From Hormoscilla sp. (GTDB lineage: Bacteria > Cyanobacteriota > Cyanobacteriia > Cyanobacteriales > Desertifilaceae), in assembly GCA_051439505.1 (NCBI GenBank), contig JBFRWI010000093.1, forward strand, positions 1-54,933: a stretch of 54,933 nucleotides of DNA, read 5' to 3'. Shown here piece by piece: positions 3,761 through 30,546 of the stretch. The stretch's first letter is position 1, and each line of letters opens with the position of its first letter. The notes beneath the pieces were generated by a model. The model was given only the letters and a program-made list of their open reading frames with translations, was not told where the DNA came from and ran no database searches. Position numbers and translations under genes: made by a program.

Positions 3761-4655
3761 GTAGGGTGGGCACCGCCCACCAGACAGGGCATCGGTCGGC
3801 GATCTGGTTGCGCCGGTGTACGGCGGTTGTTACATTTTACATCTTCACCGAGAATCTGTTGATGCCGTGCCCCTACAGGGTCTGACGGTTTATGGAGCGA
3901 TCGCATGTATTGGGCATAACCTGGCATGGGGCGATCGCATGTATGGAAAGAACGTATCGGGTAGGGGCGCAGCGTCAGCGTATCGGCAAATTAACGGCTT
4001 TACCCGAAAATTAGGTCTCGCCGTGCCCCGGTGGTTGATGAACGATCGCATGTATTGGGCATGACCTTACCTGGGGTGATCGCATGCATTTGCCGATCGC
4101 GTCCGGCCCGGGGCACGGCGCGATAAAATTGACTAATTTTTACGAAAAATTTATGATGCCGTGCCCCTACAGGGTCTGAGGGTTTATGGGGCGATCGCAT
4201 GTATGGGGCGTGACTGTTTATGGGGCGATCGCATGTATGTAACAAACGTATCTGGTAGGGGCACGGCATCGGCAAATTAACTGCTTTACCCGAAAATTAT
4301 ATCACGCCGTGCCCCGGTAGTTTATGAACGATCGCATTTATTGGGCCTGACTGTTTATGGGGCGATCGCATGCATTTGCCGATCGCGTCCGGCCCGGGGC
4401 ACGGCGCGATAAAATTGACTAATTTTTACGAAAAATTTATGATGCCGTGCCCCTACAGGGTCTGACGGTTTATGAAGCGATCGCATGTATTGGGCATAAC
4501 CGGGCATGGGGCGATCGCATGTATGGAAAGAACGTATCGGGTAGGGGCACAGGGTCGCGCGTATCGGCAAATTAACGGCTTTACCCGAAAATTAGGTCTC
4601 GTTGTGCCCCGGTGGTTGATGAACGATCGCATGTCTGAAGCGATCGCATGTATCG
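3761..4655. repeat. REP/BIME-like mosaic: about 3 copies of a ~290-bp unit
   Basis: GATGCCGTGCCCCTAC recurs at 3861, 4155 and 4441, with inverse GTAGGGGCAC/GC copies; multiple CGATCGCATG sub-repeats; GTAGGGTGGGCACCGCCCACC at 3761. Confidence 0.85.
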
Positions 4656-6374: not shown

Positions 6375-6466
6375 GACCTGGACCCAGGCGGTGACAACGC
6401 CCAAACCTTGTCAGGACGGAAGTAGCAGCAATAAGGGATGCTTGTCGCAGGCGTGGACTCCGGGTC
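6375..6466 (+). ncRNA. ffs: SRP RNA (4.5S), variant copy 1
   Basis: Long hairpin GACCTGG...CCGGGTC with domain IV TCAGG-AC-GGAA-GT-AGCAGC; own promoter-like TAGCAC...TGTTATAGT upstream. Confidence 0.85.
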
Positions 6467-6573
6467 TCCTCTTACTCTCGAACCCATCGACCCCGGAGCG
6501 CTCGCCAATCGCGAGCCAAAAAAATTTCTCCAAAAGAAGCACAAAAAAGGCAGTCTCATGTTAAGGTAGAGAA

Positions 6574-6667
6574 GACCTGGACCCATGCGGTTACAACGCC
6601 CAAACCTTGTCAGGACCGGAAGGTAGCAGCAATACGGGATGCTTGTAGCAGGCGTGGACTCCGGGTC
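6574..6667 (+). ncRNA. ffs: SRP RNA (4.5S), canonical copy 2
   Basis: Canonical domain IV TCAGG-ACC-GGAA-GGT-AGCAGC inside the GACCTGG...CCGGGTC hairpin; duplicated promoter region upstream. Confidence 0.93.
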
Positions 6668-6693
6668 ACCTCTTGAAAGGAGCGACAGTCAGT

Positions 6694-19966: not shown

Positions 19967-20371
19967 GTTTGGGCCGGTTAGACTAACGGATAACCAAAAT
20001 CAACGTATGTTTGGCCCGGTTAGACGTTATTCTCACCAAAATCAACGTATGTTTGGGCCGGTTAGACGTTATTCTCACCAAAATCAACGTATGTTTGGCC
20101 CGGTTAGACGTTATTCTCACCAAAATCAACGTATGTTTGGGCCGGTTAGACTAACGGATAACCAAAATCAACGTATGTTTGGGCTGGTTAGACTAACGGA
20201 TAACCAAAATCAACGTATGTTTGGGCCGGTTAGACTAACGGATAACCAAAATCAACGTATGTTTGGCCCGGTTAGACTAACGGATAACCAAAATTAACGT
20301 ATGTTTGGGCCGGTTAGACTAACGGATAACCAAAATCAACGTATGTTTGGGCCGGTTAGACTAACGGATAA
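19967..20371. repeat. 42-bp tandem repeat, about 9.6 copies, two unit variants
   Basis: Unit ATGTTTGG(G/C)CCGGTTAGAC-[TAACGGATAA or GTTATTCTCA]-CCAAAATCAACGT starting at 20007, 20049 ... 20343. Confidence 0.95.
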
Positions 20372-20992
20372 CTCAGACAAATGCAAGTCTTGTCCAAATA
20401 AACGCTCGTCGAACCCAGCCTCTACGCTCTCTATGACTCCAGTGGTGGGTCACAAATCGTGTTTTCGATGCATTAACACTACTTGTGACCGGATCTCATT
20501 GATTACCTCGCCGCATTAGTCGATTTTGGCATTTATGCTACGAGGTCTACTGTATAACTGGTCTTTATTTCTGCGTGAGTCCCTAATCCTGGTGCTTGCC
20601 TTGGTTAATAACAAGAGTGTGTTTGTATTAGTGATTGCTGGCTCAGCTGCGCTAGGCAGTGGACTCGGTCCCCTGTCGGTGTTGCTGTAGCACTGATGTG
20701 GCGGTTTGGATTCAATCTATCTGATGACATATTGGAAATCGTATCCGGTATGGTTGCTAGTGCTCTTGTATATTTAGTTGCTAGGCTTTTCGCTCTCAAC
20801 TAAGCAAAAGGCCAGAATCTTGAATAATTTAGTATCGGACTCCTAGATAATTTTACGGAATTACAAGTGTTTTCCGATGGCGAGGCAAATCAATTTGAAG
20901 TTTTATACTGTAACCTTCAATTCAGTAAGCAAAATACTTCGCTCATCAGACTTCATCATACTTTTTGAGGAGATAGAAGTCTCACGCTGAAG

Positions 20993-21045
20993 AAAAAAAC
21001 CCCAGTTGATAGGCTGGGGGAGATAAATCAGGATGCATCTACCAT
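20993..21045 (-). ncRNA. nsiR1: NsiR1-like sRNA copy (distal, variant)
   Basis: Minus strand GGTAGATGCATCCTGATTTATCTCCCCCAG...CTGGGG-T7; promoter hexamer is a one-mismatch DIF1 (21074-21079). Confidence 0.7.
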
Positions 21046-21155
21046 TCCTTTGTTCTCGGGTTTGCCACTACTATTCGGATAACTCGCGGTAGGGGAATTT
21101 TTTCGTTGCATAGAAGAGCAACTTTTGGGAGTGCTTGCATAGTAGATCGCAGAAC

Positions 21156-21207
21156 AAAAAACCCCAGCGGATGGGCTGGGGGAGATAAATCAGGGTGCAT
21201 CTACCAT
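21156..21207 (-). ncRNA. nsiR1: NsiR1-like sRNA copy
   Basis: GGTAGATGCACCCTGAT plus terminator hairpin and T-tract; TCCGGA at 21236-21241. Confidence 0.78.
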
Positions 21208-21317
21208 TCCTTTGTTCTCGGGTTTGCCACTACCATCCGGATAACTCGCGGTAGAGGAATTTTTTTCGCTGCATGTATAGCAACTTCTGGGAGTGCTTGC
21301 ATAGTAGATCGCCGAAC

Positions 21318-21370
21318 AAAAAAACCCCAGCGGATAGGCTGGGGGATATAAATCAGGGTGCATCTACCAT
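21318..21370 (-). ncRNA. nsiR1: NsiR1-like sRNA copy
   Basis: GGTAGATGCACCCTGAT plus CCCCAGC..GCTGGGG-T7; TCCGGA at 21399-21404. Confidence 0.78.
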
Positions 21371-21527
21371 TCCTTTGTTCTCGGGTTGGCCTCTACCATC
21401 CGGAGAAATTTCAGCTCGATGTCGGAGGGGTAGTACGTTCCCAGGCTCTGCCTGGGAACGAGGTGCTCCGGTGGAGACATCGAAGAAGAGCAACTTTACC
21501 GGAGCGATCGAGAGTCGATCGCCGAAC

Positions 21528-21580
21528 AAAAAAACCCCAGCGGATAGGCTGGGGGATATAAATCAGGGTGCATCTACCAT
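21528..21580 (-). ncRNA. nsiR1: NsiR1-like sRNA copy (proximal to hetF)
   Basis: Identical to the previous copy; TCCGGA at 21609-21614. Confidence 0.78.
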
Positions 21581-21867
21581 TCCTTTGTTCTCGGGTTGGC
21601 CTCTACCATCCGGATAATTTATGCTGGCGGTAGGGTAATTTTGGGGGGTGCATAGAAGAGCAACTTTTGGGAGTGCTAAAGAGTCTAATTACAATTTGGC
21701 AATCTTGTCACCGGGGGCATGGAAAATATTGGGTGCTTGGACTTTCCCTGAATCTCATGGGAAGGCGTAGAAATTGAGACTAAATCAAGCTGTCAGTTAT
21801 CAGTTGTCAATGCAAGCATGCAGCAGAAAGTCTCGATTTGAGAAGCAAACAGGAGTGCAGGTGAAGT

Positions 21868-25274: not shown

Positions 25275-25775
25275 ATGAACCTCAATGATTTGAAAGAAGA
25301 GGTTAGCTGTGCCTATGTTAATTTGGTCGCATCCTTTGCGGGCTACTCATTTCAAAGAGCAGATAGACGATCGGATAACGACGGTATTGACGGAACCATT
25401 AAAGTGCCTAGATGGATAGAGTCAAGTCGTCCCCAGCTTGAGGTGCAGGTGAAATGCACTTCGAGAGATGTTGTTGAAGATGATTACATTCGCTATCCTC
25501 TCAAGGTGAAAAATTATGAATAATTGAGAGTAGAAGAGACTTTAATTCCTCAGATTTTGGTTTTGATTGTACTGCCAGAAAACGTCAGTGAATGGTTTCG
25601 TCAGTCTGAAGATGAGCAGATTATCAAGCTGAGCGCATACTGGTTATCGTTGCGCGGTTATCTACCGACCAAAAATAAATACACTGAGACAGTCTATTTA
25701 CCACGGACACAATTGTTTACTGTTAGCGAGATACAACAGATTATGCAGCGGATCGCAAGGGGAGAAAGGTTATGA
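25275..25775 (+). pseudogene. DUF4365-family (PD-(D/E)xK-like) protein interrupted by an in-frame TAA at 25521-25523
   Basis: DNDGIDG..LEVQVKCT..YPLKVKNYE*LR..PQILVLIVLP..AYWLSLRG; both halves are in the same frame. Confidence 0.8.
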
Positions 25776-26699: not shown

Positions 26700-26756
26700 T
26701 AGCCCGCGCAGGCGGGCTTTGTTCATGTAGCCGGACCCTTTAGGGTTCGGGCGGCG
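26700..26756. repeat. Double-hairpin REP-like element; related copy in inverted orientation at 48489-48545
   Basis: AGCCCGCGCAGGCGGGCT and GTAGCCGGACCCTTTAGGGTTCGG hairpins. Confidence 0.7.
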
Positions 26757-30266: not shown

Positions 30267-30546
30267 GCTGATTCCCGTTTTAATGGTGCTGATTCAGGGG
30301 AAATTAGAGCTAATTCCCGTTTTGGTGGTGCTGACTCCTGGGAATCAGAGCTGATTCCTGTCTCGGTAGTGCTGATTACTGTCCCGGTAAGGCTGATTAC
30401 TGGGAATCAAAGCTGATTCCCGTTTCGGTGGTGCTGACTCCTGGGAATCAGAGCTGATTCCCGTTTCGGTGGTGCTGACTCCTGGGAATCAAAGCTGATT
30501 CCCGTTTCGGTGGTGCTGATTACTGGGGAATCAAAGTCAATTCCCC
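30267..30546. repeat. ~41-bp tandem repeat (6-7 units) built from ~20-bp GCTGA(T/C)T sub-units
   Basis: GCTGATTCCCGTTTCGGTGGT-GCTGACTCCTGGGAATCA(G/A)A repeated. Confidence 0.9.

Follow-up and report, generated by a model that had tools for sequence, protein, structure and literature searches.

Tandem copies of the sRNA NsiR1 lie upstream of hetF in the heterocyst-forming Nostoc (Anabaena) sp. PCC 7120. Can the same arrangement exist in a filament that makes no heterocysts, and if so, what holds the RNA constant there? The question is raised by a 54,933-nt stretch of Hormoscilla sp. DNA (contig JBFRWI010000093.1; hereafter the window), in which a sequence-only reading had recognized a putative NsiR1 array upstream of and opposite to a hetF homologue. 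That reading took the host to be non-heterocystous and proposed that the module predates heterocysts. Here we evaluate these claims computationally, in the window and across related genomes.

Four NsiR1 genes upstream of hetF

Recomputing the spacing of the four direct repeats gave the periods originally described (162, 163 and 210 bp, start to start), with 81–100% identity to the reference copy over 108 nt. All four match the full Rfam NsiR1 model (RF02399, gathering score 39 bits) on the minus strand, at 50.4–56.0 bits (E 5e-7 to 2e-8); none of 14 control genomes gave a match at or above the cut-off. Each copy has the 5′ motif, G/C hairpin and T-tract attributed to it, and one unit is longer (210 bp) because it carries a short dispersed element of ∼25–28 nt (Table 1). 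ORFs of 114 and 96 aa overlie the repeats and were not taken as genes. That the four repeats are separate NsiR1 genes is secure, membership resting on sequence, promoter and synteny. Copy 4, judged from its sequence, is probably weakened.

Two features lie beyond the original description, the first being a TCCGGA-N17-AGAA promoter for each copy. In copies 1–3 (3/4), an exact TCCGGA at −35 is separated by 17 nt from AGAA. The published σHetZ consensus is TCCGGA-N16-17-TGNA, with a −10 box that may begin with A (PMC13342950 and its supplement), and the array promoters, one per copy, fit it. Across hetF loci of the order, TCCGGA or TCCTGA occurs at about −35 in 93 of 105 hetF-upstream NsiR1 copies.

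The second feature is a set of seven more RF02399 matches at two other loci, which brings the genome total to 11 matches at three loci, nine of them above the cut-off. Five of the seven lie upstream of a ribD-like gene (C228:7032-7968), where a sixth, degenerate copy can be seen by eye and TCCGGA precedes each copy; the other two are upstream of a deoC-like gene (C43:22753-22934). A degenerate copy lacking the DIF1 box was also noted upstream of an argJ-like gene (C144:5401-5455). These ribD, deoC and argJ labels are presumptive, taken from reading the translations with no family search.

Table 1. Positions of the array, its promoters and the hetF region in the window
Feature	Position	Strand	Remarks
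nsiR1 copy 4, one seed change	20991..21044	-	RF02399 50.4 bits
Promoter, copy 4 (distal)	21045..21079	-	-35 hexamer TCCGAA, one mismatch
nsiR1 copy 3	21153..21206	-	RF02399 53.1 bits
Predicted σHetZ promoter, copy 3	21207..21241	-	TCCGGA-N17-AGAA
nsiR1 copy 2, identical to copy 1	21316..21369	-	RF02399 56.0 bits
Predicted σHetZ promoter, copy 2	21370..21404	-	TCCGGA-N17-AGAA
Short dispersed repeat inside 210-bp unit	21436..21463		~25-28 nt; at least 9 other genome sites
nsiR1 copy 1 (nearest hetF)	21526..21579	-	RF02399 56.0 bits; 5′ end 289 nt upstream of hetF GTG
Predicted σHetZ (DIF1) promoter, copy 1	21580..21614	-	TCCGGA at -35, 17-nt spacer, AGAA
hetF ribosome-binding region, weak seed complementarity	21850..21860	+	-14.1 kcal/mol; about top 2% of 4906 start windows
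hetF, 857 aa	21868..24441	+	CHAT protease and TPR domains

The neighbouring gene is indeed a hetF homologue. Its product combines CHAT and TPR domains, has the His/Cys motifs at residues about 240 and 286, and gives the single match in the genome to NF045509 (HetF; E 6e-228, 759 bits, below the equivalog cut-off of 1200). "Immediately" upstream, as the array had been placed, amounts to 289 nt between the hetF GTG and the 5′ end of the nearest NsiR1 copy, and an NsiR1 copy inside the hetF 5′ UTR would require a leader longer than this.

The host had been judged non-heterocystous partly from an N-terminal FtsZ string, which is present in the sequence. Over its N-terminal 391 aa, HetF shares 84–90% identity with four Hormoscilla records and no more than 68% with any of the other 76 loci returned. 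In a HetF tree, the host genome, the same-genus genome G148 and the Hormoscilla records form one clade (support 99), adjoining Desertifilum and outside family f6; the backbone of this tree is poorly resolved, and it omits 32 named loci (nearly all Microcoleus-like) and a few with frame or coverage problems. We took f6 as the heterocyst-forming family because PfaA/HglE is above the cut-off in 7/7 members, and hepA, hglA and four hetP-family genes were found in both members tested. The host genome (93.4% complete, 0.35% contaminated) gave nothing above the cut-off for nifH, hepA, pfaD/hglA, PfaA/hglE or hetP. nifD was not found in any of five same-genus genomes, with the host included in the nifD-negative calls. 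The hetP family (NF037966) had no matches in the host, G148 or G004, versus four in each of two f6 genomes. The tandem arrangement does resemble the Nostoc array (PMC4030482), as would be expected if the contig came from a heterocyst-forming cyanobacterium and were an ordinary Nostocales locus; the identity and placement of HetF, the missing hep, hgl, nif and hetP genes and the low contamination effectively refute such a source. These data support the earlier view of the host, as a non-heterocystous, non-fixing filament of the Hormoscilla clade. Hormoscilla has been described as a filamentous sponge symbiont placed beside Roseofilum and Desertifilum (PMC6520454), and no nitrogenase was reported for sponge-derived genome bins (PMC7313196).

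The genome nevertheless has hetR, hetZ (above the cut-off), a hetZ paralogue, an unsplit patU directly downstream of hetZ, and hetF. A patX-like ORF of 102 aa (C140:8399-8707) with two RGSGR motifs and an upstream TCCTGA lies directly upstream of hetR.

Distribution of NsiR1 and its linkage to hetF

Of the genomes sampled, 151 each from the order and the class, 94 and 90, respectively, carry NsiR1 above the cut-off. Its occurrence closely follows that of the HetZ family (order: 93 both, 1 NsiR1 only, 0 HetZ only, 57 neither; class: 90, 1, 1 and 59), with the reservation that these counts include relatives and hence non-independent genomes. The fit is looser for hetR (84 both, 10 NsiR1 only, 3 hetR only) and hetF (79, 15 and 1), and NsiR1 does not track nifH (30 both, 64 NsiR1 only, 22 nifH only). 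All six genomes of family f33 (G033, G063, G087, G107, G125, G142) have 3–6 NsiR1 copies and one HetZ-family gene that scores below the cut-off, with no match to hetR or hetF; the minimal partner that NsiR1 requires may be the paralogue σHetZ′.

To quantify linkage, we searched a model built from 32 NsiR1 copies against 81 hetF loci from 80 genomes of the order, and against 80 named loci that overlap this set. An NsiR1 copy lies upstream of hetF at 38 of the 81 loci, none is found within at least 1 kb at 41, and two loci are too short to tell (79 informative). The 38 linked loci comprise six in f6, one on a probable contaminant contig, and 31 in eight other families. The contig in question (G083:C255, L172) carries a second hetF with NsiR1 copies that groups with f6, in a genome that is 6% contaminated. 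Among named loci, 16/76 are linked, including those of Hormoscilla, Desertifilum, Coleofasciculus, Pantanalinema, Halomicronema and a Leptolyngbyaceae record; no hetF-linked NsiR1 was found at named Microcoleus, Lyngbya, Limnoraphis, Baaleninema or Geitlerinema loci. Orientation is uniform, with 105/105 copies upstream of hetF pointing away from it.

Because the hetF–NsiR1 layout is widespread outside the heterocyst formers, a pre-heterocyst origin is likely; by parsimony, the simplest reading is that the divergent layout predates heterocysts and was later lost in places. The proposal of an ancient module is supported as regards the layout, found in eight families other than f6, and not as regards the array itself. 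On the hetF side, the four other Hormoscilla records have 1, 1, 1 and 2 copies and Desertifilum has one, versus four here, and therefore the ancestral unit was probably single. On these copy numbers the four-copy array is a recent expansion, parallel to and independent of the Nostoc array.

The finding of NsiR1 in a non-heterocystous host is correct and was largely anticipated by earlier publications. Of the 89 genomes in PMC4734099 (Table S3), 38 have a homologue, 27 of these genomes being heterocystous and 11 not, and PMC8400943 notes NsiR1 in Limnospira (RNA162 of Limnospira indica). These records establish that the RNA family reaches beyond heterocyst formers and, in the passages and table row consulted, consist of presence calls only, without promoter, synteny or target analysis. 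What is newly added here is the hetF synteny across families and the expansion of the array.

Seed conservation and candidate targets

Of 109 NsiR1 copies, 73 share an identical stretch of 18 nt at the 5′ end, whereas the hairpin/terminator varies, with some compensatory changes. One explanation of the locus is that the copies act only in cis, repressing an overlapping hetF leader in the manner of Nostoc NsiR1.1, any match to patU being incidental. The invariant antisense orientation is consistent with this, as are the retention of the layout at 38/79 informative loci in nine families and the reported repression of hetF by NsiR1.1 (PMC9045159, PMC12288457). A cis pair, however, would work with any sequence, which leaves the near-invariant seed unexplained. 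Given 41/79 unlinked loci and 15 NsiR1-positive genomes with no hetF match, hetF cannot hold the seed constant. The nearest copy also lies at inconstant distances from hetF (−289 here, about −180 in 4/6 linked f6 loci, −928 or −1765 in some genomes), and in folding models, blocking the copy-1 stretch left the hetF ribosome-binding site (RBS) open. In Anabaena, moreover, removing the nsiR1.1 −10 box barely altered transcriptional hetF-gfp fusions (bioRxiv 2020.09.09.290692). We consider a purely cis-acting array unlikely. Some other constraint must hold the seed, since the HetP family, which contains the known trans target, is missing from the host, G148 and G004.

We assessed seed pairing in five regions: the hetF RBS, the pex leader, the hetZ upstream region, the hetZ–patU junction and the starts of hetP-family genes. 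Of the five, the junction was the most striking. For the junction we used 83 hetZ loci, namely the best-scoring matches plus 20 picked by hand for family coverage; the sample is therefore non-random, and kin within it are non-independent. The junction reads as a σHetZ promoter in 76/83 loci (absent in 7/83), with a −10 box that mostly overlaps the patU start codon, and by its coordinates in the supplement of PMC13342950 it is the known PpatU5. Where the −10 box overlaps the patU start, the promoter spacer is also the patU ribosome-binding region. Pairing of the seed with the junction beats 99% of equally long windows in the same hetZ gene in 39/76 loci (14/24 families), and at least 196 of 200 shuffled seeds in 47/76 loci (18/24 families); the site is weak in 37/76 loci. 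Four-fold degenerate third positions within it are conserved at 0.96, 0.77, 0.66 and 0.66, compared to a median of 0.42 across 118 hetZ columns, the most conserved of which reaches 0.68. The junction motif does not occur in the spacers of 95 NsiR1 promoters.

Part of this pairing is a by-product of the Shine–Dalgarno (SD) sequence. Indeed, the whole junction match could reflect the overlap of SD, promoter spacer and HetZ-tail codons, with the seed held instead by protein binding (e.g. PatR/Alr1700) or by targets outside our set. PatR binds NsiR1 by CLIP-seq (PMC11797042), the boxes of the junction promoter are more conserved than its spacer, and f33 keeps NsiR1 with only a sub-cut-off HetZ-family gene. 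Nor did we find compensatory change between seed and site: f19 has a site mismatch and canonical seeds in the hetF-linked copies examined. Against mere overlap, the bases between SD and start are, at synonymous positions, more conserved than any hetZ column, and the match is retained in 6 of the 14 junctions where HetZ is no longer encoded (weak in 8/14), after a displacement of ∼70 nt (G003) and after loss of the −35 box (G128). We regard this combination of a protein-held seed and an incidental match as rather improbable.

Only the hetZ–patU co-transcript could be the target, because the site lies upstream of where PpatU5 transcripts begin. From the σHetZ promoter at the junction, transcription would in several families begin ∼11 nt inside patU, beside an in-frame Met5, a possible leaderless start; in other families the patU start has moved ∼19 nt downstream, such that the junction promoter serves full-length PatU.

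In the host itself the patU site is not significant, since its 8-bp core (−10.8 kcal/mol, as in G148) is matched by ∼9% of host start windows. A value of −17.7 is reached by only 0.18% of these windows. In most members of Hormoscilla's family the site has likewise decayed to the 8-bp core. It is the comparison across genomes that suggests patU as a previously unreported target candidate of NsiR1. No NsiR1–patU pairing is described in the literature searched, which includes PMC9045159 (no occurrence of "patU"); outside that set, Ionescu 2010, Mitschke 2011, Brenes-Alvarez 2020 or their supplements may already list patU as a predicted target or treat non-heterocystous copies.

In the host, the best conserved seed match is the pex leader (−25.1 kcal/mol). 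This pairing occurs in 8/8 leaders of Hormoscilla's family, f1 (0/100 shuffles), in 6/28 other NsiR1-positive genomes (at most 2/100 shuffles) and in 0/6 NsiR1-negative genomes. We rejected pex as a general NsiR1 target, as only those 6/28 genomes outside f1 show the pairing. A target scan of the host genome, run over 5229 and 6043 start regions from crude gene calls, returned mostly dispersed repeats and mis-called starts at the top, where pex also appeared, with hetF, hetR, hetZ, patU, ftsZ and ftsQ ranking from 303rd to 4741st of 5229.

Pairing at the hetF RBS is weak in Hormoscilla, f13, f38, f5 and f21 and absent in most other families. In the same duplex test, 4/8 hetP-family starts (the family of the validated target alr3234) reached −16.6 to −18.6. 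The RBS motif AGGAGTGCA, complementary to the NsiR1 seed with one bulge, is common to hetP-family starts (L219, L220) and to hetF of f1, f5, f13 and f38. The hetZ upstream region pairs moderately with the seed, probably within coding sequence. A possible anti-SD switch in the hetF leader was also considered and rejected: the element is largely confined to f1 and missing in two Hormoscilla records, and constrained folding gave no closing of the RBS.

Could the locus simply be a relic in a symbiont-type genome, its genes real and no longer functional, and the array a neutral tandem duplication? Copy number does vary among close relatives (1, 1, 1, 2 and 4), copy 4 has changes in both promoter and seed, and the patU site of Hormoscilla has decayed. 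Yet the hetF-linked copy, with TCCGGA at −35, is retained in all four other Hormoscilla records, the host keeps 11 NsiR1 matches at three loci together with open reading frames for hetZ, patU, hetR and hetF, and the pex-leader match is preserved in 8/8 family members tested. We consider a relic very improbable.

Proposed circuit, related systems and the rest of the window

In Anabaena, DIF1 promoters are read by σHetZ, which PatU3 inhibits (PMC13342950; PMC7377430); PatU3, which also inhibits division, is in turn degraded by the divisome protease HetF (PMC9457339; bioRxiv 2020.09.09.290692). NsiR1 blocks translation at start regions, its validated trans target being alr3234 of the hetP family (PMC9045159). 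With this background, we lean towards an explanation in which an ancient σHetZ–PatU–HetF module includes NsiR1 as a silencer of patU, with hetF as a second target and a recent expansion in dosage.

The array provides four sRNA genes of ∼54 nt, each with its own predicted σHetZ promoter and intrinsic terminator. The genes of the module are present in this non-fixing filament, and the module itself would be older than heterocysts. By analogy with Anabaena, active σHetZ would lead to production of NsiR1, whose unstructured 5′ 18 nt would pair with purine-rich, SD-containing start regions and block translation. Conservation suggests that the oldest trans target may be the RBS of patU, the anti-σHetZ gene, on the hetZ–patU co-transcript. 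This would create a positive loop, in which σHetZ activates NsiR1, NsiR1 represses PatU and PatU inhibits σHetZ. hetF, repression of which has been shown in Nostoc, would be the second target here, in cis via the leader or weakly at the RBS. In Hormoscilla's family the patU site would have mostly decayed to its core, leaving the pex leader as the best-pairing partner, and the four copies would represent a recent gain in dosage from one ancestral copy. The likely output would be control of cell division or cell state along the filament, not nitrogen fixation, a role in division or patterning being suggested by Anabaena genetics. The more specific proposal that NsiR1 is the RNA arm of an ancient σHetZ–PatU switch, its seed held by pairing with the patU RBS and hetF, the hetP family and pex being further or later targets, we offer tentatively, at slightly less than even confidence. 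Repression of hetF and repression of patU would shift PatU oppositely; the combination could produce a pulse, but it is also a weakness of the scheme. NsiR1 is characteristically a ∼60-nt RNA that depends on HetR/HetZ and is induced by nitrogen step-down; for the host, two RNA-library runs (5–7% of words) yielded, at 80% likeness, only contigs of relatives, none more than 95% alike, from which strand and ends are not readable.

How does this locus compare with known systems? The array of PCC 7120 shares the 5′ sequence, the terminator, one DIF1 promoter per copy at −35 (PMC9045159, PMC4030482) and tandem copies that point away from hetF. It differs in copy number (4 here versus 12, independently expanded), unit length (162–210 bp versus about 135) and position of the nearest copy (−289 versus about −180), and the hairpin is shorter here (54-nt RNA). 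Unlike in PCC 7120, nif, hep, hgl and the hetP family (including alr3234) are missing from the host, which has two further NsiR1 clusters, upstream of the ribD-like and deoC-like genes. Heterocyst-specific expression cannot serve to define NsiR1 here because no heterocyst-envelope or nif genes were found in the host; such expression characterizes the Nostoc copies rather than the NsiR1 sequence family.

With the σHetZ–PatU3 circuit (PMC13342950) and HetF–PatU3 proteolysis (PMC9457339), the host shares hetZ and its paralogue as well as patU, hetR, hetF and a patX-like gene, together with promoters that fit the consensus and a junction promoter at the PpatU5 position. PatU is one fused ORF in the host. 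The main text of PMC13342950 contains neither "nsiR" nor "sRNA" and describes no NsiR1 input on patU translation; in its supplement, nsiR1 appears only as a σHetZ promoter and ChIP peak.

What hetR, hetZ–patU and patX do in heterocyst-less filaments is recognized as an open question (PMC11298460). At this locus the sRNA layer of the hetR/hetZ–patU circuit is intact in a non-fixing host, and a 70-nt NsiR1 promoter is a ready single-cell reporter of σHetZ activity in such filaments. As this promoter marks single cells in Anabaena, it could, if our explanation is true, reveal a hidden patterned cell state in heterocyst-less filaments. Should the patU site prove real, the core heterocyst circuit described in 2026 (PMC13342950) gains a feedback loop that it has lacked, and the reporter systems published for Nostoc PCC 7120 allow an immediate test; otherwise, what stands is a well-supported but modest extension of the range of a known RNA.

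Several other features of the window deserve mention. About 600 bp from the NsiR1 array, positions 19967–20372 hold 9.7 copies of a 42-bp unit (93% matches) that is unique in the genome, and a 286-bp tandem repeat (2.7 copies, 3860–4634) lies downstream of a tRNA gene. One CRISPR-DR28 match (26700–26723) is barely above the cut-off (E 0.005) and probably due to chance. Tandem matches to the bacterial small SRP RNA occur at 6375–6469 and 6574–6670 (47.6 and 61.2 bits), and such a duplicated ffs gene is unusual. Finally, positions 25772–54933 are occupied by a contractile-injection-system cluster with VgrG-like, baseplate, sheath and tube genes; it also encodes a baseplate/beta-propeller fusion of 2265 aa and a DUF6519 protein of 1552 aa that carries an S74 chaperone domain, and a tract of 41–42-bp repeats (30267–30536) lies within this region.
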